64,000 bases of DNA from Cyanophora paradoxa CCMP329 (Eukaryota; Plantae; Glaucophyta): contig QPMI01000175.1 in the NCBI GenBank assembly GCA_004431415.1, positions 1 through 64,000 of the forward strand, in the 5' to 3' direction. A program made the translations under genes and the position numbers. The notes under the pieces were generated by a model, which ran no database searches, was not told where the DNA came from, and was given only the letters and a program-made list of their open reading frames with translations. Numbering within the stretch: position 1 is the stretch's first letter; each line of letters starts with the position of its first letter. Positions 3,516 to 62,075 of the stretch are shown one piece after another.

Positions 3516-3521
3516 TTTATT
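3516..3521 (-). terminator. AATAAA polyadenylation signal overlapping the Rep stop codon
   Basis: The minus strand reads TGAATAAAG, a compact stop/poly(A) overlap common in small DNA viruses. Confidence 0.5.
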
Positions 3522-4336
3522 CAGACAACAAAGGCACACGATGTAACCCTGCGCTCAAACGCTGCGTATCGCTCCGGCGGGATATTCAGGTACCAGGACC
3601 GCGGCTCCACGTTGCTCGTGATGTAGATCGCTGTGCTGTTAAATTCCACGAATCCTCCTTTGATGGGAACCTTGTGCGGATAGCGGTCGCATAGCTGTAG
3701 CATTTCCGTGAACGGAATGTAGCCGTCGTAATCATCGATAAGAACGATAGGTTGATTCTCGTAGCCGTCCCACCATGGTCCCTCGGGCTTTTTGTAGATT
3801 TCAGAATTCCCGTACGAATCGTAGATAAATCGGGTCTTTCCTGTTCCAGGCGGTCCCCACCGAATGTGGATTTCCGTTGGGCGAGTGCGAGGCGGCTGCG
3901 AAAATGCGACAATGTCGCGGATCCCGCTTCGGTACCGGCAGTACAGATCGGGGTACTCGAGGGCGACCTCGGAGATTTTTCGTTTCTCGCTCTTGATTTC
4001 GTGGACGAGCTGCGCGAGATCCGTCCTCTCCCCTTGTTTCTTTGGCTCTCCGAACTCGAACGGTCCGTCTACGTGCGTTGCATCGTTCTTCTTACAGTAG
4101 GCAATCGCATCTTGCTGCCGGCCCTTGCGCGGCTCCCAGTGTATAGTGGGGAGGCGTTTCCTCAGCTCGGACTCGCGCTTGGCCTTTGAGAACTCGACGT
4201 AACCTTGGAGGTGGGGCGTTCCGGATGCGCCGACCTCCTCGCTGTAAACGAGGTACGTCGCGTCGGTGAAGTCGCTCAAAGTTAGACGCCTCTGCGGATT
4301 GTTCCACGTGAAGCAAAAGTTGCGATGGCGCGACAT
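3521..4336 (-). CDS. rep: CRESS-DNA-virus (circovirus-like) replication initiator protein, HUH endonuclease + SF3 helicase, 271 aa
   Basis: Starts MSRHRNFCFTWNNP. Motifs: RCR I FTWNN, II PHLQG, III YCKK, GERTDL linker, Walker A GPPGTGKT, WWDGY, Walker B IDDY, motif C ITSN, Arg finger AFERRV. The ORF is uninterrupted and intronless. Confidence 0.97.
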   Translation of the reverse strand: MSRHRNFCFTWNNPQRRLTLSDFTDATYLVYSEEVGASGTPHLQGYVEFSKAKRESELRKRLPTIHWEPRKGRQQDAIAYCKKNDATHVDGPFEFGEPKKQGERTDLAQLVHEIKSEKRKISEVALEYPDLYCRYRSGIRDIVAFSQPPRTRPTEIHIRWGPPGTGKTRFIYDSYGNSEIYKKPEGPWWDGYENQPIVLIDDYDGYIPFTEMLQLCDRYPHKVPIKGGFVEFNSTAIYITSNVEPRSWYLNIPPERYAAFERRVTSCAFVV

Positions 4337-4422
4337 CGAAACTCGAAACGCGCCGCAGACCGTCGGACGTGACGGGCGCCAAATGAAACCCCAAAGAATT
4401 GTTATGGGGGAGGGATGGGGGC

Positions 4423-5680
4423 CTTGAGCGGAGCCTGGACGTAAATGGGAAACGCAGTACCCCCGGGGCGGGCGAGCTGAGCTTGGCCAGAGGGAGAGAC
4501 GGGGCGAAGGGGGGCTTGAGCGGAGCCTGGACGTAAATGTGAAACGCAGTACCCCCCCAATGGCCTGGCCGATGGCCAGGCGGGCAGCTGAGCCTACGCT
4601 TGGCCGGAAGGAGAGGAGGGGGGGGGGGGGAGGGGCGGGGGGAAGGCGGGGGGCGGAGGGGGCGGGCGGAGGGGCGGGCGGAGGGGCGGGCGGAGGGGGC
4701 GGGCGGAGGGGGCGGGCGGAGGGGGCGGGGGCCAGGGCGGCGGACGGGGCGGGGGCCAGGGCGGCGGCGGGGGATCTTTGCAGCTCTACGGTCACAATAT
4801 GAACGCTGATAACATCAATGCCCCCGTTGACGTTTTGAGTCTCTCTTTGCGATCGCAGCCATCTGGATCTGGCGCTGGTAAATAAAGCAGATGGCCGTGG
4901 GGGGGCCCTTGAGCGGAGCCTGGACGTAAATGGGAAACGCAGTACCCCCAGGGGGGCGAGCTGAGCTTGGCCGGAGGGAGAGAGGAGAGAGAGAGAGAGA
5001 GGGCAGCTTTGAGCAAAGCCTGGACGTAAATGGGAAACGCAGTACCCCCCAGGGGGGCGAGCTGAGCTTGGCCGGAGGGAGAGAGGAGAGAGAGAGAGAG
5101 AGAGGGCAGCTTTGAGCAAAGCCTGGACGTAAATGGGAAACGCAGTACCCCCAGGGGGGCGAGCAGAGCTTGGCCGGAGGGAGAGAGGAGAGAAGAGAGA
5201 GAGAGGGCAGCTTTGAGCAAAGCCTGGACGTAAATGGGAAACGCAGTACCCCCCAGGGGGGCGAGCTGAGCTTGGCCGGAGGGAGAGAGGAGAGAGAGAG
5301 AGAGAGGGCAGCTTTGAGCAAAGCCTGGACGTAAATGGGAAACGCAGTACCCCCCAGGGGGGCGAGCTGAGCTTGGCCGGAGGGAGAGAGGAGAGAGAGA
5401 GAGAGAGGGCAGCTGCAGCTTTGAGCGAAGCCTGGACGTAAATGGGAAACGCAGTACCCCCCAGGGGGGCGAGCTGAGCTTGGCCGGAGGGAGAGAGGGA
5501 GGAGGGAGCCCCTTGAGCGAAGCCTGGACGTAAATGGGAAACGCAGTACCCCCAGGGGGGCGAGCTGAGCGTGGCCGGAGGGAGAGAGGGAGGAGGAGCC
5601 CCTTGAGCGAAGCCTGGATGTAAATGGGAAACGCAGTACCCCCAGGGGGCAAGCTGAGCGTGGCCGGAGGGAGCGACGGG
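4423..5680 (+). repeat. Module 1, A-array: 10 copies of core CCTGGACGTAAATGGGAAACGCAGTACCCC in ~90-108-bp units
   Basis: Cores start at 4434, 4526, 4919, 5019, 5122, 5223, 5324, 5431, 5523 and 5613. Units carry GCGAGCTGAGCTTGGCCGGAGG and (GA)n linkers. The first core is ~100 bp upstream of the Rep ATG. Confidence 0.95.
4618..4772 (+). repeat. G-rich (GGAGGGGCGGGC)n tract with G-quadruplex potential
   Basis: Many G3-G12 runs between A-array cores 2 and 3. Confidence 0.7.
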
Positions 5681-5684
5681 AGGA

Positions 5685-5722
<38 letters not shown>

Positions 5723-5725
<3 letters not shown>

Positions 5726-6080
5726 AGAAATGCAGGACCCCAGGCGATCTCCCCCCTCCCTCTCCTCCTCCCATCAGCCAAACGGAGCACATGATCGGCG
5801 ATAGTCATTATGAGCAATATTAATATTACCTGCAGAACTGAATGCGTATGGTCCCAACCTAGAATGCCTCATGATCATCTTATCTAGAACTTCCAGCTTC
5901 TGAGCCTCACGATGCGCATCTAGATTTAAATTAGCCCCTCTTTCTCCTATGATCCGTCTCTCGCTTTTCCTGCTTGGAATGTCTTTCTTGAAGTTTCAAG
6001 CTCATGATCGATTTCGATATATATTGCCGCTGTCCAAAGTCGAATCTTTTGTTGTAAAAACAAACTTCTGGCAACTCTCC
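5723..6080 (+). promoter_or_regulatory. Conserved AT-richer spacer of the module, containing TAATATTAC (5821-5829); candidate origin / nick region
   Basis: The same spacer recurs inverted at ~10100-10460 (TAATATTAC at 10353-10361, minus) and ~22035-22355 (CAATATTAC at 22252-22260, minus). No convincing stem flanks the nonamer. Confidence 0.45.
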
Positions 6081-6502
6081 TCTGCAGAGAGGAGGGCCCC
6101 GGGGTACAGCGTTTCCCATTATCGTCCAGGGCTCCCCTATGGCGGGCGGGGGGCGCTCCGGATCCGCAGAGAGGAGGGCCCCGGGGTACAGCGTTTCCCA
6201 TTATCGTCCAGGGCTCCCCTATGGCGGGCGGGGGGCGCTCCGGATCCGCAGAGAGGAGGGCCCCGGGGTACAGCGTTTCCCATTATCGTCCAGGGCTCCC
6301 CTATGGCGGGCCGGGAGCGCTCCGGATCCGCAGAGAGGAGGGCCCCGGGGTACAGCGTTTCCCATTATCGTCCAGGGCTCCCTATGGCGGGCGGGGGGCG
6401 CTCCGGATCCGCAGAGAGGAGGGCCCCGGGGTACAGCGTTTCCCATTATCGTCCAGGCCTCCCCTATGGCGGGGGCGCCTCCGCAGAGAGGAGGGCCCCG
6501 GG
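6081..6502 (-). repeat. Module 1, B-array: 5 x 82-bp units with the core in inverted orientation (CCTGGACGATAATGGGAAACGCTGTACCCC on minus)
   Basis: GGGGTACAGCGTTTCCCATTATCGTCCAGG at 6101, 6183, 6265, 6347 and 6428. Its reverse complement matches the A core at 27/30 positions. Confidence 0.95.
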
Positions 6503-6947
6503 CTTTCACGCGGGCCTTCCGAATCGCTTTATATATATTATATGGTTTGATAGGCGTGCCCGTCGCCAGCCATGTATATATCATAGTATTCAAACTAGGC
6601 CTCGAGCTCTTTATATCATACCGTCGGACCTATTTACAGCAAACGTGGGAGAGGACCCTGCGAGCGCACCTATGTCTAGCTCTGCTGTGCGATGTCGTGT
6701 CGAGGCCTCGGTTCCTATCGAAACGGGCGTGAGACGCGGAGAGGTATGGGGGGCGCGAGGAGGGGCGCCGGCGGGCAGGGTGGGGCAGGGAGGGGGTGGG
6801 GGAGGGGCGAGGAGAGGGGGGAAGGAAGGTCAGAGGGAAAGGGGGGCGGGGAGAGAGAGGGGAGGGGGGCGGGAGGCCCTAGGGGGGGCGGAGAGGGGAG
6901 GGAGGAAAGGGGGAAAGGGGAGGGAGAGGGTGTCGGACCTCGAGCTC

Positions 6948-7250
6948 GGGCCCCTACCGCGCGCCTGGCGGGTTCCGGCCGGCGAGAGGCGTACCCCCCG
7001 CTCCCCGTCGTTTCTGCCGGCCGGCGTCGGGACGGGGGACGGGGCGAGGGGGGGGGAAGAGGGCGCGGGGCGGGCCCCTACCGCGCGCCTGGCGGGTTCC
7101 GGCCAGCGAGAGGCGTACCCCCCGCTCCCCGTCGTTTCTGCCGGCCGGCGTCGGGACGGGGGACGGGGCGAGGGGGGGGGAAGAGGGCGCGGGGCGGGCC
7201 CCTACCGCGCGCCTGGCGGGTTCCGGCCAGCGTGAAGCGTACCCCCTCTC
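6948..7250 (+). repeat. ~124-bp tandem repeat (~2.4 copies)
   Basis: GGGCCCCTACCGCGCGCCTGGCGGGTTCCGGCC recurs at ~6948, ~7072 and ~7196. Confidence 0.85.
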
Positions 7251-8850
7251 TTCCCGTCCGGCGCAGCTGCAGAGCCTCGTCGAAAGCGCCGCGCGGCGAG
7301 CTCGAAAGAGACGGGGGGGGGAAACGGTATCGGACCGGCGGAGCGAGGACACTCGAAGAGGCGGCGGGGCGACCTCGCCGGAGCCCGGGCGGTCGCTCCC
7401 TGGACGGGCCGGACGGGGCCGATCGGCGAGGTCGCCCGGCGCCGCGCCTCGGCTCGCTCGGCCGGCTCGCCGGCCGCCGCCGCGCGGCGCGGGCTGATAC
7501 GCGGGGCGCGCGCGCGCGGTCGGCGAGTCGGCGGCGGGCTTTGGGGCGCGGGCGGGGTCGTACCGAGCGCAGAAGCCCCGCGCCTCGCGGCGAAATCAAG
7601 CGTGGCATCCGCTCGCGCCCCGCGGGCCGCGGGATCTCCTGCGCCGGCGAGGTCGGCGCCTGCGGCGGGTCCGCCGATCAGATCGTACGTATACGCCGCG
7701 AAGCCCCGAATTGGGGGGCCGCACCGGCAGCCTCGATTGCAACCTATGTGCGACCTGCTCCCCGTTCGAGGGCGCGCGACGGGCTGCCTGCGCGCGAGCC
7801 CGACCTGGGTGAAAGGCGCCGTTAACGTTGCTGCGACCGGATCGGAGCGGCGGCCGGGGCGACCGAGCGGCCCGGGCGGGCGGAAACCGCAGAAAACGCC
7901 CGGAAAGGATGCGCGCTGCGCGTTGGTCACACCCTACCGGCTGGCGGTGCCGGCGATAGCTCTGTAGCTAGCGGTGCTGTACATGTCGGGCGAGGCGAAC
8001 CGCACGCGAGCCGCGCGGTCTCGGCGCAATCGGACCGGCGTGGGCGAGCTCGAGCCTGCCTCTGCGTCCCGGGACCGCCGCAAGAGTCCAGAGGCAGGAA
8101 GCCGGCGAGAGAGGCCGAGGTCGGGCCGCGCACGCGTACCCGCAGTCGGCTCCGACCCCGGCCTGCGCCGGGGCCGACCTACGTATACCGGACGACTGGA
8201 TCTGGGCGCAGCAGCCGCACGAGCTCGCCGGCGGCTCGAGCGAGCTCCCGGAGCGCCGCGCCGCCTGGTCTCGCCGCGCGGCGGCGCTCGATTGCGCGAT
8301 TCTGGGCCTGCGGGCGAGACAGGCAAGACGGACGACATCAAGGGGCAGCCGCCGCATCGGCGACCTCCCCGAGCGCACCGTAGCTCTCCTAGCGCCCCGC
8401 AGCCGCGCCGCGACCGCGGCCGGACGCGCTTCCTCGCGCCCGCGCAGCGCTCTAGATCTGCTCCCGAGCCCCGGAGCGCCGAGGCGCCGATGGAGGTCGG
8501 ATCGGGTCATCTCGCGCCTCTGGCGCCTCGTGCGTGGCGGAGCGCGTGGAACGACCGCCCGCGCCGGTCGGCCGCCCTTGCAATTGCCTCTAGATCTAGA
8601 TCTCCGCAGCGCCGCGCGCGGCGCTCCGAGCTCTGCGAGGTGCGCCGGCCCCCGGCCTCGCTCCTTCTCTCCTGGGATCTTACTCGGCTTGGCGGGGTGG
8701 CAGCGAGCAGAGGGCGGGCGGCGGAACGTGGTGGGAGCGTCTCGCTGCAGGTGGCTCTCCACGGGCGAGGCCCGCCTTGGCCCGCCGTCTAGCGTTCCCT
8801 CGCCTTGCGCCCACGCTTGACCTCGGTGCGTTGTAGGTGGCGTCGACGGT

Positions 8851-9622
8851 GAGCTGGCCGGATCCCGCCACCTCGAGCGAACCCGGGCGGTGCGCCCCGT
8901 CCCCGCGCGCCCCCGCCCCGTGTTCTAGATCGGGCGCGGGCGCGTTCAGAGGGGGGTACGGGGCGAGCTGACCGGATCCCGCCACCTCGAGCGAACCCGG
9001 GCGGTGCGCCCCGTCCCCGCGCGCCCCCGCCCCGTGTTCTAAATCGGGCGCGGGCGCGTTCAGAGGGGGGTACGGGGCGAGCTGGCCGGATCCCGCCACC
9101 TCGAGCGATACCAGAAGGCACGCCCCCGGCCCCCGCGCCCCGGCCCGTGTTCTAAATCGGGCGCGGGCGCGTTCAGAGGGGGGTACGGGGCGAGCTGGCC
9201 GGATCCCGCCACCTCGAGCGATACCAGAAGGCACGCCCCCGGCCCCCGCGCCCCGGCCCGTGTTCTAAATCGGGCGCGGGCGCGTTCAGAGGGGGGTACG
9301 GGGCGAGCTGGCCGGATCCCGCCACCTCGAGCGATACCAGAAGGCACGCCCCCGGCCCCCGCGCCCCGGCCCGTGTTCTAAATCGGGCGCGGGCGCGTTC
9401 AGAGGGGGGTATGGGGCGAGCTGGCCGGATCCCGCCACCTCGAGCGATACCAGAAGGCACGCCCCCGGCCCCCGCGCCCCGGCCCGTGTTCTAAATCGGG
9501 CGCGGGCGCGTTCAGAGGGGGGTACGGGGCGAGCTGGCCGGATCCCGCCACCTCGAGCGATACCATGCGCTCGAGGTTCGCCCCCGGCCCCCGCGCCCCG
9601 GCCCGTGTTCTAAATCGGGCGC
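8851..9622 (+). repeat. 113-bp minisatellite (~7 copies), cut by module 2
   Basis: GAGCTGGCCGGATCCCGCCACCTCGAGCGA...GTGTTCTAAATCGGGCGCGGGCGCGTTCAGAGGGGGGTAC recurs at ~8851, 8964, 9079, 9192, 9305, 9418 and 9530. The last unit stops at TAAATCGGGCGC, immediately before module 2. Confidence 0.92.
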
Positions 9623-9628
9623 AGAGGA

Positions 9629-10476
9629 CGACGGTATGATATAAAGAGCTCGAGGCCTAGGTTGCATACTATGATATCGATATATACACGACTGGCGACG
9701 GGCACGCCTATCAAACCATATAATATATATAAAGCGACTCGGATGGCCCGCGTGAAAGCCCGGGGCCCTCCTCTCTGCGGAGGCGCCCCCGCCATATATA
9801 GGGGAGCCCTGGACGATAATGGGAAACGCTGTACCCCGGGGCCCTCCTCTCTGCGGATCCGGAGCGCCCCCCGCCCGCCATAGGGGAGCCCTGGACGATA
9901 ATGGGAAACGCTGTACCCCGGGGCCCTCCTCTCTGCGGATCCGGAGCGCCCCCCGCCCGCCATAGGGGAGCCCTGGACGATAATGGGAAACGCTGTACCC
10001 GGGGCCCTCCTCTCTGCGGATCCGGAGCGCCCCCGCCCGCCATAGGGGAGCCCAGGACGATAATGGGAAACGTTGTACCCCGGGGCCCTCCTCTCGGCAG
10101 AGGAGAGTTGCCAGAAGTTTGTTTTAACAACAAAAGATTCGACTTTGGACAGCGGCAATATATATCGAAATCGATCATGAGCTTGAAACTTCAAGAAAGA
10201 CATTCCAAGCAGGAAAAGCGAGAGACGGATCATAGGAGAAAGAGGGGCTAATTTAAATCTAGATGCGCATCGTGAGGCTCAGAAGCTGAAAGTTCTAGAT
10301 AAGATGATCATGAGGCATTCTAGGTTGGGACCATACGCATTCAGTTCTGCAGGTAATATTAATATTGCTCATAATGACTATCGCCGATCATGTGCTCCGT
10401 TTGGCTGATGGGAGGAGGAGAGGGAGGGGGAGATCGCCTGGGGTCCTGCATTTCTCTGCCCCCGCCCCCCCCCCCG

Positions 10477-10520
<44 letters not shown>

Positions 10521-11042
10521 CTCCCCCTCCCGTCACTCCCTCCGCCCACGCTCAGCCTGCCCCCTGGGGTACTGCGTTTCCCATTTACATCCAGGCTTCG
10601 CTCAAGGGGCTCCTCCTCCCTCTCTCCCTCCGGCCAAGCTCAGCTCCGAGGCTCGCCCCCTGGGGGTACTGCGTTTCCCATTTACGTCCAGGCTTTGCTC
10701 AAAGCTGCCCTCTCTCTCTCTCTCTCTCCTCTCTCCCTCCGGCCAAGCTCAGCTCGCCCCCCTGGGGTACTGCGTTTCCCATTTACGTCCAGGCTTTGCT
10801 CAAAGCTGCCCTCTCTCTCCCTCTCTCTCCTCTCGCCCTCCGGCCAAGCTCAGCTCGCCCCCCTGGGGGGTACTGCGTTTCCCATTTACGTCCAGGCTTC
10901 GCTCAAGGGGCTCCTCCTCCCTCTCTCCCTCCGGCCACGCCCAGCTCGCCCCCCTGGGGGGTACTGCGTTTCCCATTTACGTCCAGGCTTTGCTCAAAGC
11001 TGCCCTCTCTCTCTCTCTCCTCTCTCCCTCTGGCCAAGCTCA
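9629..11042 (-). repeat. Module 2: inverted copy of module 1 (tail, 4 B cores, spacer, poly-C, 5 A cores)
   Basis: Reverse complement of ~5270-6626. B cores at 9808, 9890, 9972 and 10052; A cores at 10566, 10663, 10764, 10867 and 10958. Confidence 0.95.
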
Positions 11043-11352
11043 AGCACCAGCTCGACACGAATACTAGCTGTAGCACTCTTGTCATCTATCTCCTCCTGCA
11101 GTCAGCATCCCAGTATCCGGTAGGCGAGGAGCGGGGGACTGTTGTCAAGTGTGTACGAATGCAACAGGCTTTCCAAAAAAAAAGCCTATCAAACCATATA
11201 AGATAAATATAGCGACTCGGATGGCCCGCGTGAAAGTGCGGCTGCACTGCATATGAACCTCTGTGCGACACGCGTACGCTCGAGCTCGTGCGTATGCCGG
11301 CGCCGTCTACATGTATGTACTACGGGATACGGGATGCGCGAGCTCCATTCGC

Positions 11353-12462
11353 CTACTCTCCGACTCGTAGAGCATGCGCGTCGCCGTCGGCGTCCACCTC
11401 GACGCGGATCGCCCCCGCGTCACCAGCGCGCGGCTCGCCGGAGATCGCCGAAAAATCCTCTGTGAGTTCGCGCATCACCCGCAGCTTCTTGCTCACCCCG
11501 CTGCTGCGGCACTTGGACTCGAGGAGCATCTGAAAAGCTTTGGCGACGTTTTCGTTCGGGAATCCGTGCGCGACGGCCCGAATCTTCCAGGGGCCTCGGT
11601 CGCGCGTCATGTCCAGGAGCCCCGACCCGCGCAGCTCCGCAAATTTGCGCTTGAGATTGCAGCAGCAACCCACGTAGGCAGAGCTGGGCTTGGCGCCGCC
11701 GAGGAGAAACACGACGGGCTGCTTGCAGCCAAATTTCGCGGAGAGCTCCGCCGCGCCCGAGAGGGATTGGGCGGCGGGGGAGCTCTTGTCGGTGCGCATG
11801 CCGTCCACGTCGCCGCGGGCGGGGCCTGCCGGGACACCCGCGCTAGCGCTGTGGGCGCCGGAGTCCGAATTAGAATTCGGAGCTTGCAGATCCGGCCCGA
11901 TGACTGCGCGCGCCGGAGATTGCGCGCGCGCATGCGTTTGCTGATCATGATCATGACTGGCCACTGGCGCACCGCGTGTACCCTCTTGATCGGTGCAGAC
12001 GTCGACGTTGCGCGCCGAATCCGGACCGGTGCTCCCGGCCTCCTCGCGCTCGCGCCTGAGCTTGTCGCGATCGGCGTCGACATCTGCGCGGTCCGACTCC
12101 GGCTCGCGATCGGCCTCCCGATCCGTGGACGCGGTCGCAGCGGTAACTGCAGCTGCCGCCGCAGCCTCGGGCTTGAGGTCGCCCTCTTCCGCGCCGCCCG
12201 TGCTCGCGCACGTGCTTGCAAGCGCCGACGTCGGCACATGCACATGCACATGTGCATCGGCACGGACGGGCTCGAGAAGATTGTCCTTGCCTGACAGCGG
12301 AGATCCAGATTCGAGCTCGAGCTCGCGATCGTCGATGCGCGTACCGCCAGAGTCGATGTCCCTATTTTGTGCGAGCGTCGCGACAGCGCCTGCAGCATGC
12401 ACGGGAAAAGTGCGTGCGTCGAGGGCGGGGGGGCCCAGGGGGCTGGAAGGTCTGCTGGCCAT
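11353..12462 (-). CDS. SLX1-like GIY-YIG nuclease-domain protein with a long low-complexity N-terminus (probably catalytically degenerate)
   Basis: The C-terminal VVFLLGGAKPSSAYVGCCCNLKRKFAELRG...RDRGPWKIRAVAHGFPNENVAKAFQ aligns by eye with the SLX1 pattern VYLL..YVG.T.NP.RR..QHNG...RPW....V.GFP....AL.FE. Intronless. Start chosen at MASRPSS (12462); the ORF is open to 12663. Confidence 0.7.
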   Translation of the reverse strand: MASRPSSPLGPPALDARTFPVHAAGAVATLAQNRDIDSGGTRIDDRELELESGSPLSGKDNLLEPVRADAHVHVHVPTSALASTCASTGGAEEGDLKPEAAAAAAVTAATASTDREADREPESDRADVDADRDKLRREREEAGSTGPDSARNVDVCTDQEGTRGAPVASHDHDQQTHARAQSPARAVIGPDLQAPNSNSDSGAHSASAGVPAGPARGDVDGMRTDKSSPAAQSLSGAAELSAKFGCKQPVVFLLGGAKPSSAYVGCCCNLKRKFAELRGSGLLDMTRDRGPWKIRAVAHGFPNENVAKAFQMLLESKCRSSGVSKKLRVMRELTEDFSAISGEPRAGDAGAIRVEVDADGDAHALRVGE

Positions 12463-12846
12463 GCATATGGTCGTGCACGTGCCAGCGGGATTAATATTCT
12501 TGCGATGCGTGCCGGACTTGGTCATCATCCGATCCGCACCACAGCACCCGTGGCCTCGACGTCTAGATCTGGCCATAGGCGGGCCCTGGGTGCTTATAGC
12601 CACGTGCACCGACGTCGCCTCCCAGAGTCTGCTCTCGCCCCGGGCCGAGCTCGAGGACGACATCTACATTCCAGCCCTGCGCGTTCTTATATTATGATGA
12701 CATCGCATGTATACATATTGAGTATACGTTTGAATTCATTGTTTCAATCAACACGTGCCCACGCCTTTGTCGGCGTTGCAACTGGCCCTCTGGCACCGGG
12801 ATATAAGCGTGTCGAGCACTGCCATCCATCATTCCACAGTCCGGAA

Positions 12847-13353
12847 ATGCAAGCCAAGACCTGCCCGCACCCTTTCGTCGCGTCCACGCCCGAGGGGCCG
12901 GTGTGCACCGTCTGCGGCGCGTGCGTGGGCGTCGCGTTCGAATTCGAGTTTGAGGGGCGAGGATACGCAGGCTCTAGGGTCGTCGATTCGTTCAACGAAC
13001 GCGACGCGCACGGGCCCGGAACCGACGGCCGCGGCGGCGGCTCGACGACGTCGCCCAATTGCAAGGCCCACCGAGACGGCCGAGATCTAGAGCTGCTGAC
13101 CGCCTTGCGCGAGACGGCGGAGCGCATGTCGCTCCCACGGCCGAGGAGCGCCGCGCGCCGGGCCCTCGGCATCCTGAACGAGTCGGGGTCCCACGTCAAC
13201 TCTGACGCGGAGCCGGATGGCCATGGCCATGGGCGCACCGCCGGCCGCGCGTACGGGGGCCTCGCCCTCCGTGCCGCCCTCTACGAGGCCGCTCGGCTCC
13301 GTGCCGTGTCTCGCGCAGACCGTACCCCTCGCTGCTCGCATATGCACGCGTAG
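12847..13353 (+). pseudogene. Short TFIIB-like gene, copy 1 (Zn ribbon + first cyclin repeat only)
   Basis: MQAKTCPHPFVASTPEGPVCTVCGACVG...LLTALRETAERMSLPRPRSAARRALGIL...LALRAALYEAAR, then an early stop. TATA-like GATATAAG at ~12800. Confidence 0.65.
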
Positions 13354-13768
13354 CCTTGTACACGTGTGTCGAAATTTTCATTTAGACGTGGAAACAAACC
13401 GTTTGAACGGAATTCACCTGCTTTGTTCTCGTCACACGACCGTGCATGCGGCAGCGATTCTTCGAGTCGTTGGCGTCGTGCACGTGCACGTGCACGCGGC
13501 CCATGCATATGACCACGTGCACATATGCCGGGTCGCCAGCGCTGATCGTATAATGCGTATACATGAGCACGCTCGAGGACGACATCTACATTCCAGCCCT
13601 GCGCGTTCTTATATTATAATGACATCGCATGTATACATATTGAGTATACGTTTGAATTCATTGTTTCAATCAACACGTGCCCACGCCTTTGTCGGCGTTG
13701 CAACTGGCCCTCTGGCACCGGGATATAAGCGTGTCGAGCACTGCCATCCATCATTCCACAGTCCGGAA

Positions 13769-14269
13769 ATGCAAGCCAAGACCTGCCCGCACCCTTTCGT
13801 CGCGTCCACGCCCGAGGGGCCGGTGTGCACCGTCTGCGGCGCGTGCGTGGGCGTCGCGTTCGAATTCGAGTTTGAGGGGCGAGGATACGCAGGCTCTAGG
13901 GTCGTCGATTCGTTCAACGAACGCGACGCGCACGGGCCCGGAACCGACGGCCGCGGCGGCGGCTCGACGACGTCGCCCAATTGCAAGGCCCACCGAGACG
14001 GCCGAGATCTAGAGCTGCTGACCGCCTTGCGCGAGACGGCGGAGCGCATGTCGCTCCCGCGGCCGAGGAGCGCCGCGCGCCGGGCCCTCGGCATCCTGAA
14101 CGAGTCGGGGTCCCACATCAACTCTGACGCGGAGCCGGATGGCCATGGGCGCACCGCCGGCCGCGCGTACGGGGGCCTCGCCCTCCGTGCCGCCCTCTAC
14201 GAGGCTGCTCGGCTCCGTGCCGTGTCTCGCGCAGACCGTACCCCTCGCTGCTCGCATATGCACGCGTAG
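13769..14269 (+). pseudogene. Short TFIIB-like gene, copy 2
   Basis: Near-identical to 12847-13353. Confidence 0.65.
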
Positions 14270-14571
14270 CCTTGTACATGTACACGTGTGTCGAAATTTT
14301 CATTTAGACGTGGAAACAAACGGAATTCACCTGCTTTGTTCTCGTCACACGACCGTGCATGCGGCAGCGATTCTTCGAGTCGTTGGCGTCGTGCACGTGC
14401 ACGCGGCCCATGCATATGACCACGTATGCCGGGTCGCCAGCGCTGATCGTATGATGCGCATACATGACCACGCGCGAACTTGGAACTTTGATTTCTGACG
14501 CGGTCGGCCCGATTGCAGCGAGGGATAAAAGACGACGCGATCTCTCTCGTACCGCATTTCACAGACCGGAA

Positions 14572-15540
14572 ATGGAATCCAAGACCTGCCCGCACCCTTT
14601 CGTCGCGTCCACGCCCGAGGGGCCGGTGTGCACCGTTTGCGGCGCGTGCGTGGGCGTCGCGTTCGAGGGGCCCGGCGCTGCGCACGTACACGCGGGCATG
14701 GGGGAATGTGCGTGGAATGCACATGGGCAAGCACGTGCACGTGTGCTTTGCAACGCCAATGCGGCGCGCTCGCGGGCGACGGACGCCTCGGCCGCGGCGC
14801 CGGCCAGAGGCGAGCTCGAGGGCGGGGCGCGGTGCCGAGCGCGCTCCGCGTGCGCGGACCGCCAGAACCTGCTCGCGACCGTGCACGATATTGCGGAGCG
14901 CATGTCGCTTCCCGAGAGCGTCGCGCTCCAGGCCTTTGAAATTCTGTGCGAGTCCGACGAGCGCACGGGAATCGTCAACGGGCGGCGCTACGACGTCCTC
15001 GCCATCGCCGCGCTGTACGCCGCCGTCCAGATTCGCGGGATCCCCCGCCTCCTCCGGGAGTTTCTGGAGCAGGGCGACCTGTGCGCGTGCGGCGGCACGG
15101 CCTCTTTCACTCGGGGCGAGCTGCAGCGCATGATCCGCTCCCTGAGCGCACAATTCGGTCAGCAAATGGTGGCAGGGTACGGCATGACGGAAGAGATCAT
15201 CCGTTCCATAGGACGACGCATTGAATTCGACCGAGCGACCATTGCCCGCGCGCAGGAGCTCTTCCGAACCGCAGCGAGCCGTGCCCCCCGCCCATTTTCG
15301 AGGTCGCCCGAAAGTCTCGCCGTCGCCGCCCTGGCCCTTGCGAGCAAGCCGTCGACGCCGCGAGCGCAATCGACGTCGGCTTTGACCCGACGCTGGAGCT
15401 TTCGCAGGATCTCGCACGCGGCGGGAGTCTCGCCGACGGCGGTGCGCGCGGCCGCGCGCGATTTCAAGGAGCGGTTAGCGGCGCAGGACACTCGGCCATG
15501 CCCAGCCGCGGCCGGCGCCGCGGGCGCCGCCGTACCGTAG
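14572..15540 (+). CDS. TFIIB/TFB-like transcription initiation factor, intronless, 322 aa
   Basis: Zn ribbon CPH-x(11)-CTVCG. Cyclin repeat 1: VHDIAERMSLPESVALQAFEIL...GRRYDVLAIAALYAAVQIRGIPRLLREF. Cyclin repeat 2: IARAQELF...RSPESLAVAALALA...SFRRISHAAGVSPTAVRAAARD (HTH). Confidence 0.88.
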   Translation: MESKTCPHPFVASTPEGPVCTVCGACVGVAFEGPGAAHVHAGMGECAWNAHGQARARVLCNANAARSRATDASAAAPARGELEGGARCRARSACADRQNLLATVHDIAERMSLPESVALQAFEILCESDERTGIVNGRRYDVLAIAALYAAVQIRGIPRLLREFLEQGDLCACGGTASFTRGELQRMIRSLSAQFGQQMVAGYGMTEEIIRSIGRRIEFDRATIARAQELFRTAASRAPRPFSRSPESLAVAALALASKPSTPRAQSTSALTRRWSFRRISHAAGVSPTAVRAAARDFKERLAAQDTRPCPAAAGAAGAAVP

Positions 15541-15682
15541 TGCGCGTGAGCGAGGCGGCTGGCGATATCGATGGCGATCGCGCGCGAGGCTGAGCTCGCG
15601 CATGCGTGTGATCGCGAATCGCGAGGCTCGGGGAGGAGGGCAGGCGCGCTTCTACAGCTAGCCATATGTATTTATGCAGATG

Positions 15683-16050
15683 CCGTCGCCCGCCACGACA
15701 CCGCCCTCCAGCGCCGCACCCCTCGAGCTCTCGAGGGCGACGAGCTCCTCGGCCCCTTTAAAAACACTTGTCGGGGCGTACCAGATCCTCTGCGCGCACC
15801 CCGCCGTCCGCATCGCGGTCCTCGCCGACGTGGACGCGTAGAGCTGTAGATGTAGGCCCGTGTATCCGAGGCCCCGCGTGTAATCGATATCGGAAATCGG
15901 ACTCGATTTCGTTGCGATTAATTGGACTCTTGAATGCCAGTACTAGTGGAGGCGCTGTGCACGCAGCCGCCCTCGCCGACGTGGAGGCGTAGAGCTCTAG
16001 ATCTCCTGTGCACTCACACTCGCAATTGCAATCGACTCTGTTGGGCCATG
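15683..16050 (+). repeat. Orphan duplicate of the 3' end and downstream region of the helicase gene
   Basis: Matches ~16925-17263 (GAGGGCGACGAGCTC...GTACCAGATCCTCTGCGCGCACCCC...GACGCGTAGAGCTGTAGATGTAGGCCCG...GACTCTGTTGGGCCATG). Confidence 0.85.
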
Positions 16051-16380
16051 GCGTCGGGCCGACGCCCCCGATCGGGAGCTCGTCCGATGGTCTCTGAATT
16101 CGCACGCGCGTCCGCGTGTAGCTGTATATAGGAGTTCGAACGCGGGCGCTCGTATGATCGTCGACGCAGGGCCGTCCGATCATGAGCGACCGCGAGGGGC
16201 GTACCCGTCCCCGTCAACTCTTTGGAAATTCGAATTCTCGCGGGGCCCGCCGCGGCCCGCAGTATAAAAGGCGGCCCCGAGCGAGCTCCGCACTGCAAAC
16301 CGCGGCCGTGCACCCTAGCACGCTCGCACCCGTCGCGTCAACGTTTCCAAGTTAGCGCGACGCGCCGAGCCATCACGATC

Positions 16381-17064
16381 ATGGCGATCGCGACGCCGCG
16401 TTGGAACATCGACCTCGCAAACCCTGGCGACGCGGTGTACGTCGGGCGCGCCGACACCGTTCTCGTCCGCGTGCTACGCGACCAGGGCTTTGCCGACAGG
16501 CGGATCCTCGCCGTCTTCGCCCTCTACGGCCGCGCCCTCGTCGGCGGAGGCAACGACGGCTTCCGAAAGACGGCGCTCTCCATCGAGGGGCTCACCGTCA
16601 CGGGAAAGACGCTCGCCGTCAACTGCCTGACCACCGTCGCCAAGCTGCTGCTGCCCGGCGGGGCCGACGCCGTCGTGGATGTCGGCGAGAAAGAGATGAA
16701 GAACCGCAAGTTTGCGCAATGGACCACGACGCGCTGCGAGACGGCGCGCGCGCTCGTCGTGCGCGAGGAGCCGCTGTTCTCCACCGCGCGCCTGGGCCGC
16801 ATCTGGGACGGCGTGACGAAGACGCTCGTCGTCGTCTCGAACAGAGGGCTCGCGTTCCAGCGCGCCGCCGCCGCCGCCGCCGCCTACGAGCACCGCTTCC
16901 TCCGCATCCGGTTCGGCACCCCCATCGCCGTCCACGACACCTCCCTCGAGAGCCGCATCCCTCTCGAGGGCGACGAGCTCCGCGGCGCCTTTGTCGAGGC
17001 GTACCAGATCCTCTGCGCGCACCCCGCCGTCCGCATCGCGGTCCTCGACGACGTGGACGCGTAG
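16381..17064 (+). CDS. Stand-alone SF3 (D5-type) helicase/ATPase domain protein, 227 aa
   Basis: YGRALVG, Walker A IEGLTVTGKT, Walker B-like LVVREE, motif C VVVSN, then HRFLRIRF and HDTSLESRI..E, the order seen in the C-terminal domain of D5/P4-type primase-helicases. TATAAAAG at 16263. No primase domain. Confidence 0.7.
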   Translation: MAIATPRWNIDLANPGDAVYVGRADTVLVRVLRDQGFADRRILAVFALYGRALVGGGNDGFRKTALSIEGLTVTGKTLAVNCLTTVAKLLLPGGADAVVDVGEKEMKNRKFAQWTTTRCETARALVVREEPLFSTARLGRIWDGVTKTLVVVSNRGLAFQRAAAAAAAYEHRFLRIRFGTPIAVHDTSLESRIPLEGDELRGAFVEAYQILCAHPAVRIAVLDDVDA

Positions 17065-18027
17065 AGCTGTAGATGTAGGCCCGTGTATCCGAGGCCCCGC
17101 GTGTAATCGATATCGGAAATCGGACTCGATTTCGTTGCGATTGGACTCTTGAATGCCAGTACTAGTGGAGGCGCTGTGCACGCAGCCGCCCTCGCCGACG
17201 TGGAGGCGTAGAGCTCTAGATCTCCTGTGCACTCACACTCGCAATCGACTCTGTTGGGCCATGAGCGATAACAATCGACTCTGTTGGGCCATGAGTGATA
17301 ATTGTAGGCCGGGGAGGCAAACTTAGAGGTCGGTTTCTGTCGACGTCTCTGCGCTGGCAATTGTTTGCGTAATTGAGAACATCGACTTGCAATTGCGAAA
17401 CATACATATGCATATGTGCGGGTTGAGCTTGCAGATGTCTAATCGATAACAATAATACATCGCAGCAGCTGTAGCTGTAGCTACAGCTATCTAAATGCGT
17501 CGGATGTGAATTCGAGGTGAGCATGAATTCGAGCGAATTCAACTCTGAGCATGAGCAAACATCGAATTATGTAGCCAGGTAATAATGTGAGCGTTCAAAT
17601 TAATAATATTTGAATGTGGCCAGGTGCAGACATACGAAACCGTCCATGCATCTGGGAGCCCGAGCGCGGCTAAAAGCAGGCGTGCCGGACGCATGTGCAG
17701 GCCGTTCTAGACGTGCGAGGTGGCACAAAATCAACGCGTGCTCCAGCTCGCCGATCGCGGGTCGAGCTCCCCGCAGTGCACGTGCACCCCGGTTTATATA
17801 GCTACGCCCGCACACGCATACAATTGCAAGGAGCCCAAGTCAGCAGCAGCGGTCAACGTTGCACCCGCAACCGTTGAACGTCGACGCAGTGAAACGATCC
17901 ATGATCCCACTGCGAGCCTCGCGCTTGAATTCGAAGCGACGCACCCGCACACGCCGACCGTGATCGCCCGCTTCAAATTCAGACGTCGACGCGAATTGTA
18001 AAACAGCAAGATACAAAACACATACAC

Positions 18028-20776
18028 ATGTCGACTGGAAAGGGCCCCGCCGGCGCCTCCGGATCCGGATCCACCGCGAGCCCGAACTCGAAGCGGGGCG
18101 CCGGCGTCGCGGCCGCTGGCGCTGGGCCCTCGAGCCCACCGTCCGCCCACGCTCTCGCGCTCGCGCGGCCGTCGTTTGACGGCCGACCGGCCAAGGTGCA
18201 GCTTCCGACGTTTATAAGCATTGGACGGGATCCGAGCCGTGCGTTTCGCCCCTCGTGCGCGCGGTGCGGCCTGGAGAGCGTGACGCCGCCGGCGTACCTC
18301 CTCCCCTGCGCCGCGGCCCGCGTCCTGGCCCGCTCGGGGGCCTCGTCCCTCGGCGAGGCGCTCGAGACGCACCCCAGCCCGACGCTGGAGGACCTGCGCG
18401 GGGGCGCGTCCTCCTCGTTCGTGTGCCTCACGTGCGCCCTCACCCTCGTCTCCGGCGCCGTACCCGATCGCCATCGCGACCCATGGCCACCCGCCGCAAA
18501 CGCGGATGCGGGGTCGACGTCCAATTTGAATCCAAAGCCGACGACGACGACGACGGAGGACGCGCCCGCGCATGCCCGCCGCTCGTTCACGTGCCCCGCG
18601 TGCAAGGAGGGGCACAGGGCCCCGGAGGATCTGCTGACGTCCTCCCGCATCGACGCCTACCTGGCGTACATGTCCTTTATCGAGGAAGGGGCCGGCAGCG
18701 CGCAGAGCTGGATCTCGTCCGAAATCGTCGCCAGGCAGGCGCTCGTCTCCGTCTGCGAGCGCGTCGCGCAGCTCGAGCTCGAGCTGCAGCATGCGCACGC
18801 GCAGCAGACTCTGAGTTCCGGATCCGCCGGCGCCGATCGCGATCCGCCCACGCACGCGCCGGCCTCGGAGGCGTCCGGCGAGCCCAAGGGCGCGGATCCA
18901 GAGGTTCCTCCGAAAGAGGCAGACGCGACGGCCTCCACCTCCGTGGCCAGCGCGAGCTCTGCGCATGCAGGCGATTGCAAGCTCAAGGCCGCCGCAAGCT
19001 CCGATCCCGATCGCGCCGGCCCCGGCTCGAGCGCCTGGAAGGGCAAGGCGCCGGTGACGCGATCTCCCGCCAATCCGAATTCCACCGCGGACCCGGCCGC
19101 AGCCGCAGCGCCCGCCCTCCCCGCAGACTCGAGCGGGAGCGCTGCGAGCGCTGCAGGGAAAGATCCGGCGGCGGATCCGGACGATGGTCGCGCCGCCGCC
19201 GCAGCTGCAGCGACGGAGAGGCTGCGAAAACGAAAGAAGCCGGATTCGGACGCGGCGGCGGCCGTGGCCTCCAGCTCCAATTCCGGCCCCAGCGCTGCTA
19301 GCTCGAGCTCGCGATCGCGATCGCGATCGGCCACGGGGGCCGGGGGCCGTGGGGCCGGGGCCGCGGGTGCCGGTACCCCCGCGAAACGCGCGCGCAGCAA
19401 GTGGGGGGCGGGGAGGACGGAGCGCAAACCCTACGAGAGCGACAAGCTCGTCAAAATCCTCTACTGCGCGTACACCCACCCCGCAGAGAATCCGGAGGCC
19501 TCGGGCTCCGAGGAGGAGGCCGGGCCGCCTGCGGCTTCAGCGGCAGGTGCAGCCGACCAAGGGGCCGAGGCGTCGACGGATCCCAAAGGCGCGGCGGCGG
19601 CCCCGGCGGCGGCGGCGCTGCAGCTGGCGGGGCCGGTCGCGAGCTCGAGCGGCGGCGGAAAGCGGGGGGCTCGGGGGGCCGACAAAGGGGCCCGTTCGGA
19701 CGCCGACGCGTCCGATTCCCCGTCCGCTTCGAATTCCAATCCGGGCTCGGGCTCCGACTCGCGCGCCGGCAGCCCCGATCACGACGTCGATCCCCGCGAG
19801 GCCGAGCTCGCGGCCGCGTGGGAAGCGGCCCTCGCGACGGCCGCCGAAGGCCCGCAGGGAGACGAGGACGAGCTCGAGGGGGGCCTCGAGGGGGCCGCCG
19901 CGGGGGAGGACTCCAAGGTGGACCCCGAGAGCCTGCCCGCGTACGAGATGGGCCTGTCGGCCGGCGTGGACATTGCCCTCGTCGGAAGGCGCCTCGACGG
20001 AAACGCCGAGGCGCGGGCGGAGCTGCTGGAGCGCGTCCAGCAGCTGGGGCGCGATCGGATCCGGGCCATCATGCTCGTCGCCGCCGCCGTGCTCGGCGCC
20101 TACGAAAAGTACAGGGACCAGCACGGAAACAACCGAAAGCTTTGGGGGTACTGGAGGAAGACGCACGTCGAAAGCAAGTACAATTCCATCCTCGGTACGT
20201 GATCGTGAGGGTGATCGCTCGCGCACGTGCACGTTTTGAATTTTGGTTTCGATTCGCTTTCGTTTCGGTCGAGATCGTCAAGTCGCTGAGCGCACGCCGC
20301 GCACTTTACGATTTCCGGGTTTCTCGCCTGCATTTAAATCTATATATATAGATCCGCGCACATCTACGCATCCCCGTTTACGCTGACTCGCAAATTTACA
20401 CGCCGGCGCAGAGGCGGTCGGCTTCCGGCTCGAGCTTCCCGCGCAGAGGACGGAAATCTACACGGATCTGAGGAACCTCGCCGAAACCATCCGCCGCTTC
20501 CCGGGCCTGGCTCGCGTCACGGGAACGGGAATCAGCGCCATCGACTTTGTCTCGACCGTCCCGCTTCTTCGAACCGCCGACGCCGAGGGCGCCAAGCGCG
20601 TCTCGGCGCGCATCTTGGACGCCGTGCGGAGCGCCGAGGGCTACACGTTTGACGAAACCGTGCTGGCGCTCGCCTCGGGGCGAGACGAAGACGACGACAA
20701 GGGGGAGGAGGGGGGCGGAGAACGCGGCGACGAGGCCTCCGAGGCCGGATCCGCGTCCGGGTCGGGAGGCGGGTGA
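18028..20776 (+). CDS. RING-finger-like protein with long Ala/Ser-rich regions; 2 exons (18028-20194, 20412-20776)
   Basis: Cys spacing CARC...LLPC...CLTC...CPAC resembles a RING with insertions, followed by a coiled-coil and an NLS-like RKRKK. Intron G|GTACGT (20195)...CTGAC branch (~20383)...GCAG| (20411) restores an in-frame continuation ILEAVGFRLELPAQRTEIYTDLRNLAETIRRFP...*. Confidence 0.6.
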
Positions 20777-21050
20777 CGCGCGGGCCAATAACTACATATC
20801 GTAGTATGCGACCCGTGTTCGAGATTCGGTTCTAGTCTGAATTTTCGGCGGCCGGCGGCGGCATGCAGCATGCACATGCCCACGATCGCGAGTCCGAGTC
20901 TCCATCTCGCCGCACGCGCTCAATGGATCGAATACTCATTTCATTTGTATACGTACACAGGGCGGGCCGGGGAGCGAGACCTCTTAAGCTTCCGCCCCCG
21001 CCCCCTCCCCGCCGCCGGCTACATACACACACACACACGTGCACGGCATC

Positions 21051-21754
21051 ATGAGCACCTCCACGCACACCGCATGCGCACCCCACCTCGCGCTCTCGCC
21101 CCGGGCGCTACCCCCGCAGACTCTACATCTGCCGCCCCGGCCCGCTGCGCGCGCGCCGGCCCCGCCCCTGGATCTCGATCTTGGTCCCGCCCTCGTGGCG
21201 CGCTGCACCCCCGACGGCGAGAGCGTGCCCCTCTGCGCCGCCCTCGTGGGGTACTCGCGGCTGCTCGGTCGGTGCTCGAGTGCAGCGACGCCGTCGCGGC
21301 GGCCGGGTCCGGATCCGGGACGGTCCCCGTCGACCTCCCCGCCTCGGCGGCCACCGTGCGCCTCGCCAACGCCGCCGCGTTTGGAACGTGGCCCCCCGAG
21401 CGCGAGCCGCCCGACCTCGGGGCGTACTTTGAGCTCCTCGACCTGCTCATGTTCCTCGACGCGTACCAGGGCCCGCTCGGCAGCCGCATCGTCCAGCGGG
21501 CGGCACGCCAGCTCTCCACCCAGTACGCGTCCGACCCGGGCGCGGTCCTGCGCGCGCTGGACGCCCGCTGGGGGCGCCGCGGCGCGAGCTCGAGCTCGCA
21601 ATCGGCGGGCGCCGCGCGGGCCCGGCCCCCGAAGAAGCGCAAGCGACCGGAATCCCCGGGCCCCGCGGATCCAGATCTAGAAGAGATCGAGCCCGGTCGC
21701 GGATCGAACCCGAGGCCTCGAGCTCTCTATATCTGCAGGGCGCCCCGGCCATAG
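21051..21754 (+). pseudogene. SKP1/BTB(POZ)-like gene with one frameshift; 3' end runs into module 3
   Basis: CTPDGESVPLCAALVGYSRLL / (frameshift ~21268) SVLE...VPVDLPASAATVRLA...LGAYFELLDLLMFLD resembles the SKP1/POZ fold, followed by NLS-like PPKKRKRP. Confidence 0.5.
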
Positions 21755-22812
21755 GGGAGCCCTGGACGATAATGGGAAACGCTGTATCCCACGCCCCTCC
21801 TCTCTGCGGAGCGCCCCCGCCATAGGGGAGCCCTGGACGATAATGGGAAACGATGTACCCCCGCAGATCTCCTCTCTGCGGGGCAGCCCCCGCCATAGGG
21901 GAGGCCTGGACGATAATGGGAAACGCTGTACCCCGGGGCCCTCCTCTCTGCAGATCCGGAGCGTTCCCGGCCCGCCATAGGGGAGGCCTGGACGATAATG
22001 GGAAACTTCGTACCCCGGGACCCTCCTCTCTGCGGAGGAGAGTTGCCAGAAGTTTGATTTCACAACAAAAGATTCGACTTTGGACAGCGGCAATATATAT
22101 CGAAATCGATCATGAGCTTGAAATTAAAAAGCGAGAGACGGACCATAGGAGAAAGAAGGCCTAGGGCTAATTGAAATCTAGGTGCTGATCGTGAGGCTCA
22201 GAAGCTGGAAGTTCTAGATAAGATGAGTATCGGGACCGTTCGCTTGTGCAGGTAATATTGATCATGATGACTATCGCCGATCGTGTGCTCCGTTTGGCTG
22301 ATGGGAGGAGGAGAGGGGAGGGGGGAGCTCGCCTGGGGCCCTGCATTTCTCTGCTCCCCCCCTCTCCCGTCTCTCCCTCCGGCCACGCTCAGCTCGCCCC
22401 CCTGGGGGTACTGCGTTTCCCATTTACGTCCAGGCTTTGCTCAAGGCCGCCCCTCCCCCCTCTCTCCCTCCGGCCACGCTCAGCTCGCCCCCCTGGGGGT
22501 ACTGCGTTTCCCATTTACGTCCAGGCTTTGCTCAAGGCCGCCCCCTCCCCCCTCTCTCCCTCCGGCCAAGCTCAGCTCGCCCCCCTGGGGGTACAGCGTT
22601 TCCCATTTACGTCCAGGCTTCGCTCAAGGCCGCCCCTCCCCCTCTCTCCTCTCTCCTCCGGCCAAGCTCAGCTCGCCCCCTGGGGTACTGCGTTTCCCAT
22701 TTACGTCCAGGCTTTGCTCAAGGCCGCCCCTCCCCCTCTCTCCCTCCGGCCAAGCTCAGCTCGCCCCCCTGGGGTACTGCGTTTCCCATTTACGTCCAGG
22801 CTTTGCTCAAAG

Positions 22813-22852
<40 letters not shown>

Positions 22853-22932
22853 TCCCCTCTCTCCCTCCGGCCAAGCTCAGCTCGCCCCCCTGGGGGTACT
22901 GCGTTTCCCATTTACGTCCAGGCTTCGCTCAA
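21737..22932 (-). repeat. Module 3: more diverged copy (4 B cores, spacer, 6 A cores), same orientation as module 2
   Basis: B cores at 21761, 21832, 21905 and 21987; A cores at 22405, 22496, 22588, 22682, 22771 and 22893. The spacer is homologous with indels. Confidence 0.95.
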
Positions 22933-61956: not shown

Positions 61957-62075
61957 TTCGGTTACTTTCCGTTACTTTTCGCTATCCGCCACTTAAGCTG
62001 TCCGTTACTTTCCGGAAACGTCCGTTATAATTATCCGCCACTTTCCGTTACTTCCGTTATCTGCCACTTTCCATG
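61957..62075 (+). repeat. Cluster of ~10-bp degenerate repeats (CCGTTACTTT / TCCGCCACTT)
   Basis: About 8 interleaved copies in 120 bp. Confidence 0.6.

Follow-up and report, generated by a model that had tools for sequence, protein, structure and literature searches.

The left 23 kb of a 64,000-bp stretch of the genome of the glaucophyte Cyanophora paradoxa CCMP329 (contig QPMI01000175.1, positions 1 to 64,000; hereafter, the window) contain an intact gene for a replication initiator (Rep) of the cressdnavirus type and four modules, in each of which two arrays of short repeated sites (cores) converge on a spacer. Our best reading of this locus is a virus-like endogenous element that has captured Rep in intact form and whose converging arrays are so far unexplained. 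More specifically, we give about even weight to the possibility that the left 23 kb belong, as the right-hand portion, to a virus-like double-stranded DNA (dsDNA) element that is integrated, has multiplied recently, and has captured Rep, the arrays being its own binding sites. The island is likely longer than 23 kb, and the glaucophyte genome likely contains about five to nine copies of it.

The multiplicity of the island is suggested by the sequencing data. The 16 DNA runs listed contain 72-81% of the words sampled from positions 3400-6700. In DNA runs X1 and X6, the contig with Rep has depths of 652 and 804, respectively (∼8-9 fold the baseline), DNA upstream of Rep, 487 and 559 (∼6 fold), and contigs with the other genes of the island (cargo), 400-459 and 476-553 (∼5-6 fold). 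As the baseline, we used contigs with incidental short matches among the matches listed, whose median depth is 80 in X1 (n=16, range 60-102) and 91 in X6 (n=14, range 71-112). The bin of the module 3 spacer is at 6.6 fold in X1 and 8.4 fold in X6, and spacers of the module 1/2 type may be uncounted there. C. paradoxa is likely haploid, with a genome of 99.94 Mb (PMC6704402), and the depths suggest a single element at about five to nine copies per genome.

Since Rep, the cargo, and the modules have similar depths, they appear to move as one unit, and the modules do not seem to be dispersed. This disagrees with the first-pass annotation of the locus, which had proposed that Rep acts in trans on dispersed modules. 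The deepest listed core column is at 123 fold the baseline in X1 and 100 fold in X6. A similar depth would result from five to six elements, each with 13 B-cores, together with sister families, which speaks against a large genome-wide family of cores; the modules accompany Rep and apparently do not form a genome-wide repeat. RAYT/REPIN-like systems have numerous non-autonomous targets scattered beyond the locus of the nuclease; in this comparison, based on depth data, the core depth of ∼100-123 fold agrees with cores confined to the copies of the island.

Near-identical C. paradoxa gene models are found on four other contigs (tig00021071, tig00021072, tig00000262, and tig00001007), and on two of these four the SF3-like and the spliced cargo genes are adjacent. 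Model P0129 coincides with the window letter for letter over 722 residues and was taken as the window's own model, not a copy. More distant relatives (P0126-P0128) reside on three further contigs, and a sister contig with ∼80% identity has depths of 310 (X1) and 385 (X6). We infer a viral origin of the island; its cargo of virus type comprises TFIIB-like, SF3/D5-like, and probably GIY-YIG-like genes.

The right end of the island is likely module 3, beside a host gene encoding a histone H3 variant (Pfam Histone, E 1.4e-4, one exon), and further to the right genes of host type follow. The H3 gene, at ∼23,250-24,540 on the minus strand, is spliced and divergent; it has a tail resembling that of H3, a long loop 1, and RW instead of the usual RF, as in centromeric H3. 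Farther away, at 55,000-64,000, the GC content drops to about 50-60%, long open reading frames (ORFs) are few, and short palindromic words are many, so this may be another degraded insertion.

The Rep gene and its relatives

Rep matches the Pfam families Viral_Rep (E 5.8e-17) and RNA_helicase (E 6.5e-13) and carries the complete set of motifs: I, II (of the HUQ type), III, Walker A, Walker B, motif C, and the arginine finger. With these matches and with every nuclease and helicase motif present, the gene is intact, as had been stated in the first-pass annotation. As in Cressdnaviricota, an HUH nuclease is fused to an SF3 helicase in one protein. The HUQ signature is described as that of most Arfiviricetes, rather than of the geminivirus class (PMC10288648), and, judged by its motifs, Rep is of the circovirus/nanovirus-like HUQ type, not of the geminivirus type. 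Two other groups of Rep enzymes were considered and rejected, in agreement with the earlier view. Replitron Reps are described as lacking a helicase, and Helitrons as combining a two-tyrosine Rep with an SF1B helicase (PMC10288648), whereas Rep of the island has a Y1 nuclease and an SF3 domain.

Rep (P0001 in our set) is 69% identical to P0002, which is likewise 271 amino acids long, and 46% identical to an Arizlama virus Rep; the domain layout is common to all three. In a quick tree of the 120 best-matching Reps, with midpoint root and SH-aLRT support only, P0001 groups with P0002 (99) and then with the Arizlama virus Rep (96). In this tree, the group lies outside the circoviruses and cycloviruses, that is, not where a member of the Circoviridae would be placed. 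P0002 sits on a contig of 1719 bp and may stem either from the virus lineage that donated Rep or from another insertion in a glaucophyte.

The GC content at third codon positions is 0.69 in Rep and 0.77-0.93 in four neighboring ORFs. The lower value fits a later capture, and it seems that Rep was acquired later than the neighboring genes. No variant letters are listed in the Rep contig in either DNA run. No capsid match was found beside Rep among the window ORFs scanned (part of 144 ORFs). None of the runs listed as containing this DNA is an RNA run; in a run guessed to be RNA, Rep is covered by one contig of 231 bases at depth 2.4.

Converging arrays and the spacer nonamer

Modules 1-3 are built of a 30-bp core within units of 82-101 bp (Table 1). 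Scanning with a 21-base pattern yielded 34 core matches at ≤3 mismatches, with 0 expected, all of them within modules 1-3 and none elsewhere in the window. The cores face inward: 10 on the plus strand and then 5 on the minus strand in module 1, 4 and 5 in module 2, and 4 and 6 in module 3. The three converging-array modules of the first-pass annotation are thus real, and its distance of ∼100 bp between Rep and the first array is 98 bp from the Rep start to the first core. Its description of module 1 as ten cores followed by five is correct in number, but the A array is not continuous, as a gap of ∼370 bp splits the two Rep-adjacent cores from the remaining eight. The core is retained between A and B units that are otherwise unlike, at an alignment score reached by 0 of 1000 shuffles.

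The spacers of modules 1 and 2 are identical at 353 of 355 aligned columns. The spacer of module 3 is a diverged homologue (283 of 308 columns identical, with 55 gap columns), and the longest run invariant in all three, 62 bases, is near the B array. Modules 1 and 3 are mutually inverted at ∼82%, and multi-copy DNA continues to the left of module 1. The A/B core has no match in the viral contigs or prokaryote genomes searched. The only match in metagenomes falls within an unrelated coding region of bacterial type, and we attribute it to chance. Structured RNA was also rejected, as all 20 Rfam matches are below the gathering score and mostly represent hairpins of G/C runs.

Several smaller repeats adjoin these modules. 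A 20-bp motif occurs exactly three times, at 6598-6617 (+), 9638-9657 (-), and 21714-21733 (+), with 0.03 expected. It is always beside the B array; in module 3 it is flipped relative to the array and directly abuts it. The motif may indicate a site of recombination or an end. Positions 11184-11236, which follow a run of A beyond module 2, contain a 53-bp near-copy of the B-side flank (9706-9758), so that module 2 plus ∼140 bp is bracketed by a direct repeat. Module 1 is bracketed by a 10-bp direct repeat (4359-4368 and 6620-6629), a weak candidate for a target-site duplication, which ends where the similarity of modules 1 and 2 stops.

The fourth module was overlooked in the first-pass annotation. 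It sits between modules 1 and 2, which form long inverted arms flanking it. Its C and D units share a 37-bp core with an alignment score reached by 5 of 1000 shuffles and with no match in the viral contigs. Alignments of A/B with C/D units are not significant (scores reached by 31-877 of 1000 shuffles). A TGG-N18/N22-GTACCCC pattern, noticed post hoc, is common to the two cores; GTACCCC by itself is frequent outside the island (47 sites), and none of the 47 has the full pattern. The 1592-bp spacer of the fourth module contains no NANTATTAC, the nonamer seen in the other spacers. With its different core and without the nonamer, the fourth module demonstrates that the converging-array design occurs twice and does not need the nonamer.

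This design resembles foldback elements; a literature search for it yielded a single, unrelated listing. The modules could be non-autonomous transposons similar to foldback elements or miniature inverted-repeat transposable elements (MITEs), with inward-facing subterminal arrays, which first inserted into a silent island and later multiplied along with it; we regard this as rather unlikely. The occurrence of the design in two families with unrelated cores, the arms formed by modules 1 and 2 around the fourth module, and the 10-bp repeat (4359, 6620) bracketing module 1 are all consistent with such an origin. Foldback and MITE transposons have common termini, terminal inverted repeats, and target-site duplications. 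However, the outer A-ends of the three modules have no terminal sequence in common, we found no terminal inverted repeat at the modules, and at modules 2, 3, and 4 there is no short duplication that would match the ends. Of the ten bases duplicated around module 1, seven are also present in module 2, and other 10-bp matches were obtained among the 26 comparisons. The core depth, too, leaves little room for free copies.

Alternatively, though improbably, the arrays could be functionless minisatellite expansions in a decaying viral insertion, copied by segmental duplication of the host genome. Segmentally duplicated Rep insertions have been described (PMC3198968), the cargo contains local tandem duplications, and the array ends differ between modules. 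Against this, both the A/B and the C/D core are kept (0 and 5 of 1000 shuffles, as above), each facing inward, and several diverged families of the cargo gene are found on separate contigs.

The first-pass annotation considered the nonamer a conserved site nicked by Rep. The nonamers are indeed present at the positions it gave (Table 1), and its caveat that no stem surrounds them holds, as the best stem is 3 bp in all three spacers and also at 2784-2792. As modules 1-3 are homologous, the three nonamers represent a single ancestral site, not three independent ones; the nonamer is present in the three spacers, as claimed, but this is one homologous site counted three times. Among 332 nine-base windows of the spacer, 146 are invariant across the three copies, and the nonamer is not one of them, so that in these copies it is not more conserved than its surroundings. 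The T-to-C change in the nonamer of module 3 coincides with a 6-bp gap in a short AT-rich tandem. The 71-base stretches at the three sites fold worse than shuffles (z from +1.2 to +1.6). By comparison, 20 of 21 Rep-bearing viral loci have a stem of at least 9 bp, although 17 of the 21 are close relatives, which leaves about five independent cases, one of them (6 bp) short of 9. At no exact or one-mismatch nonamer in positions 1-23,000 does the stem exceed 8 bp (an AT-only one at 17,608).

Counted over the window, NANTATTAC occurs 6 times, with 0.63 expected and 0 of 100 whole-window shuffles reaching 6. When counted as 4 independent sites against local shuffles, the expectation is 1.29, and 7 of 200 shuffles reach 4. 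The claim that the nonamer is on the strand opposite to Rep is true of module 1 but not of modules 2 and 3. The analogy with geminivirus polarity therefore fails, as Rep is of the other type and the polarity fits one module; for a Geminiviridae-type origin, we see a Viral_Rep domain with the HUQ motif, no hairpin, and matching polarity in module 1 only. The supposed cutting site is likely incidental. Overall, what the first-pass annotation observed is confirmed, and its interpretation is supported in part, the larger share being unsupported.

This bears on the model of the first-pass annotation, by which Rep recognizes the arrays as amplified iterons and cuts at the nonamer despite its lack of a stem. 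Under this model, nick-to-nick release would circularize the cargo and help the island to spread. In its favor, Rep is intact with no variants listed across the copies, and a core is 98 bp from its start. All three spacers keep NANTATTAC, which a shuffled spacer contains in 1.85% of 2000 trials. The sites of modules 3 and 2 are on the same strand, 11,899 bp apart, and would define a circle. Moreover, HUH-initiated replication has been proposed for mid-sized dsDNA viruses (PMC11253617). On the other hand, the stem is 3 bp compared to at least 9 in 20 of the 21 viral loci (17 of them close relatives), the nonamer has no extra conservation, and the fourth module has none. Iterons of CRESS viruses are short and origin-adjacent, unlike a 30-bp core in 82-101-bp units. 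The multi-copy unit also reaches beyond the nonamers, and the cargo is not deeper than DNA outside the predicted circle, a weak point as single-stranded DNA may be missed. We consider this model decidedly improbable. The same low probability applies to a mid-sized integrated dsDNA element having independently recruited a complete CRESS Rep as a working rolling-circle initiator, with nicking at modules 3 and 2 releasing an 11.9-kb circle and thereby spreading the island.

A second candidate initiator and other genes of the island

Positions 1-2590 encode the last ∼830 residues of a 2000-residue protein, known in full from another copy (P0130; P0131 is also relevant). Hence, the element continues at least 3.5 kb to the left of the window, and its left end is outside it. 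Residues 917-1184 of P0130 match replication proteins of the CyRepA1 type from plasmids; nearly all of this stretch is encoded to the left of the window. A plasmid search returned 32 records, all cyanobacterial, and 15 of 15 among the matches listed align to these residues. The NCBIfam CyRepA1 model matches with E 3.5e-7, far below its curated cut-off, and hhalign of P0130 with CyRepA1 yields 96.2% and E 2.4e-9. Herpes_ori_bp is matched by two of three CyRepA1 proteins tested, and the sole PHROG match of P0130 is 'replication origin binding' (E 0.34). The middle of the protein is thus likely a CyRepA1/UL9-like SF2 initiator helicase, as predicted from these similarities. This second candidate initiator, overlooked in the first-pass annotation, is likely better suited than Rep.

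In herpes simplex virus, UL9 binds inverted boxes in oriS, which face inward on both sides of a spacer. By this analogy, the arrays are likely candidate binding sites, most plausibly for the predicted UL9/CyRepA1-like helicase. Under our preferred reading of an integrated dsDNA element with its own binding sites, this initiator would bind the inward-facing arrays and open the spacer between them, its AEP-like domain might prime synthesis, and Rep would be a passenger or an accessory rolling-circle module.

Several observations weigh against this reading. One core is just 98 bp from the Rep start, and the spacer of the fourth module, at 75% GC, would be a poor unwinding element. There is a mild excess of NANTATTAC over chance, although it was picked after the fact. 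The AEP-primase-like motifs at the N-terminus of the 2000-residue protein were read by eye only, and library searches for an AEP domain gave no match. The cargo gene at 18028..20775 is spliced in the manner of host genes. Among the window ORFs scanned, we found none for a capsid, packaging ATPase, polymerase, integrase, or VLTF. The viral contigs searched gave no match to the cores or to the TFIIB-like, SF3-like, or 2000-residue proteins, and there was no phage match. Finally, contig depth is an estimate, not a copy number, with baseline contigs assumed to be single-copy, and it covers neither the long arrays nor host DNA right of 22,943. The depth of Rep is 1.6-1.7 times that of the cargo, which could be explained either by GC bias or by extra Rep copies.

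The remaining genes are less well characterized. The ORF at 11353..12663 is probably GIY-YIG-like; five of its six PDB matches are SLX1 or UPF0213 proteins (E 0.2-1.6), with no Pfam support for GIY-YIG. Two single-sequence structure predictions, including one for this ORF, were uninformative (pLDDT 32 and 45). The SF3/D5-like ORF has no Pfam match; its 3' end is found both before and after the gene, in a 368-bp direct repeat (90%) at 15683-16050 and 16922-17263. Short-read contigs of both DNA runs have insertions relative to the window at 2646, 2790, and 21266, and hence some of the frameshifts in the window are likely assembly errors.

Table 1. Features of the island ordered by position in the window
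Feature	Position	Strand	Description
End of 2000-aa protein	1..2590	+	C-terminal ∼830 residues; runs off the left window edge; frameshifted in this copy
Two diverged ∼97-bp direct repeats	2929..3202	+	Downstream of Rep; nonamer-like AT hairpins, no canonical origin
Rep ORF	3521..4336	-	271 aa, intact; HUQ Y1 nuclease and SF3 helicase, cressdnavirus-type
Module 1	4406..6626	+	10 A-cores, spacer, 5 B-cores, then ∼125-bp flank common with module 2
Module 1 A-cores	4434-5633	+	n=10
Module 1 spacer	5723-6083		361 bp, 45% GC
Module 1 nonamer TAATATTAC	5821-5829	+	Best flanking stem 3 bp
Module 1 B-cores	6110-6457	-	n=5
Fourth module	6947..9622		3 C-cores (+, 124-bp units), 1592-bp 75%-GC spacer, 7 D-cores (-, 113-bp units), common 37-bp core
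Fourth-module C-cores	6966-7231	+	n=3
Fourth-module D-cores	8853-9550	-	n=7
Module 2	9629..11042	-	Inverted near-copy of module 1 inner part: 4 B-cores, spacer, 5 A-cores
Module 2 nonamer	10353-10361	-	
GIY-YIG-like ORF (probable)	11353..12663	-	Weakly SLX1-type; likeness in C-terminal part
930-bp tandem duplication (95.6%)	12649..14477	+	Partial copies of TFIIB-like gene start
TFIIB-like ORF	14464..15540	+	Pfam TFIIB E 2.9e-10; NCBIfam E 2.2e-8; PDB matches
SF3/D5-type helicase-like ORF	16381..17064	+	Short; Atlas features 0.92 to DUF5906/D5 clusters
Spliced gene	18028..20775	+	Function not assigned; homologues among Cyanophora gene models only
Module 3	21731..22943	-	4 B-cores, diverged spacer with CAATATTAC, 6 A-cores
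Module 3 nonamer CAATATTAC	22252-22260	-	

Comparison with known systems

Giant-virus insertions (PMC12344493) and a Polinton-like virus (PMC12220804) have been reported from C. paradoxa. In the main texts, we found no published description of a CRESS Rep or of this island in Cyanophora; the supplements of PMC10193959, PMC12344493, and PMC12220804 may list the locus. The island suggests that C. paradoxa likely hosts a cressdnavirus lineage that is still unclassified, and that a recently multiplied virus-like element may carry two candidate initiators, one herpes-like and one of the rolling-circle type. As the arrays provide defined sites of 30-37 bp in a culturable and likely haploid alga, the question of the initiator is directly testable. 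If the UL9-like protein reads the arrays, they would be a candidate origin for this helicase family in a protist element. If they are read by Rep, HUH enzymes would have given rise to mobility in eukaryotes by a third route. Should Rep also nick the spacers, a CRESS Rep would drive a large mobile element in a eukaryote, in parallel with mriyaviruses and separately from Helitrons and Replitrons.

Some mriyaviruses have an AEP and UL9-like SF2 protein beside an HUH gene (PMC11253617). Judged on copy P0130, the island has the UL9-like SF2 helicase typical of this subset of Mriyaviricetes. As far as these viruses are described in that source, the island resembles them in having a UL9-like SF2 helicase, with a possibly AEP-like N-terminus, near an HUH gene, as well as an SF3 helicase gene, with no DNA polymerase seen. 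By contrast, the mriyavirus HUH protein is, by description, closest to a rudivirus protein, while that of the island is a complete Rep of the cressdnavirus type that includes an SF3 domain; besides, the island is integrated and multi-copy, and its part within the window showed no genes for capsid, ATPase, or VLTF. HUH genes are also mentioned for related mid-sized virus groups that carry integrases (bioRxiv 10.64898/2026.06.19.733378).

Like endogenous Polinton-like viruses and giant-virus insertions, the island is a large insertion in several copies, whose genes include TFIIB-like, SF3-like, and probably GIY-YIG ones. It differs in that no capsid, integrase, or pair of terminal inverted repeats was seen within the window, and in having a CRESS Rep and four array modules.

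Avipoxviruses are reported to have captured CRESS Reps, with copies often inactivated (PMC10193959), and a geminivirus-like Rep with an interrupted ORF has been described in a transposon of Tuber melanosporum (PMC3198968). In both cases, as in the island, a CRESS Rep without a capsid is carried by a larger replicon or transposon. Unlike these, the island Rep has all its catalytic motifs intact, and no transposase was found beside it. Unclassified cressdnavirus Reps have the same domain layout, but the Rep of the island is chromosomal, with no capsid found and no stem-loop origin.

Replitrons and Helitrons resemble the island as eukaryotic multi-copy elements that encode an HUH Rep, at the level of detail given in PMC10288648. 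With herpes oriS and its UL9, and with foldback transposons, the island shares inward-facing sites around a spacer; its cores, unlike theirs, are 30-37 bp long and arranged in tandem.

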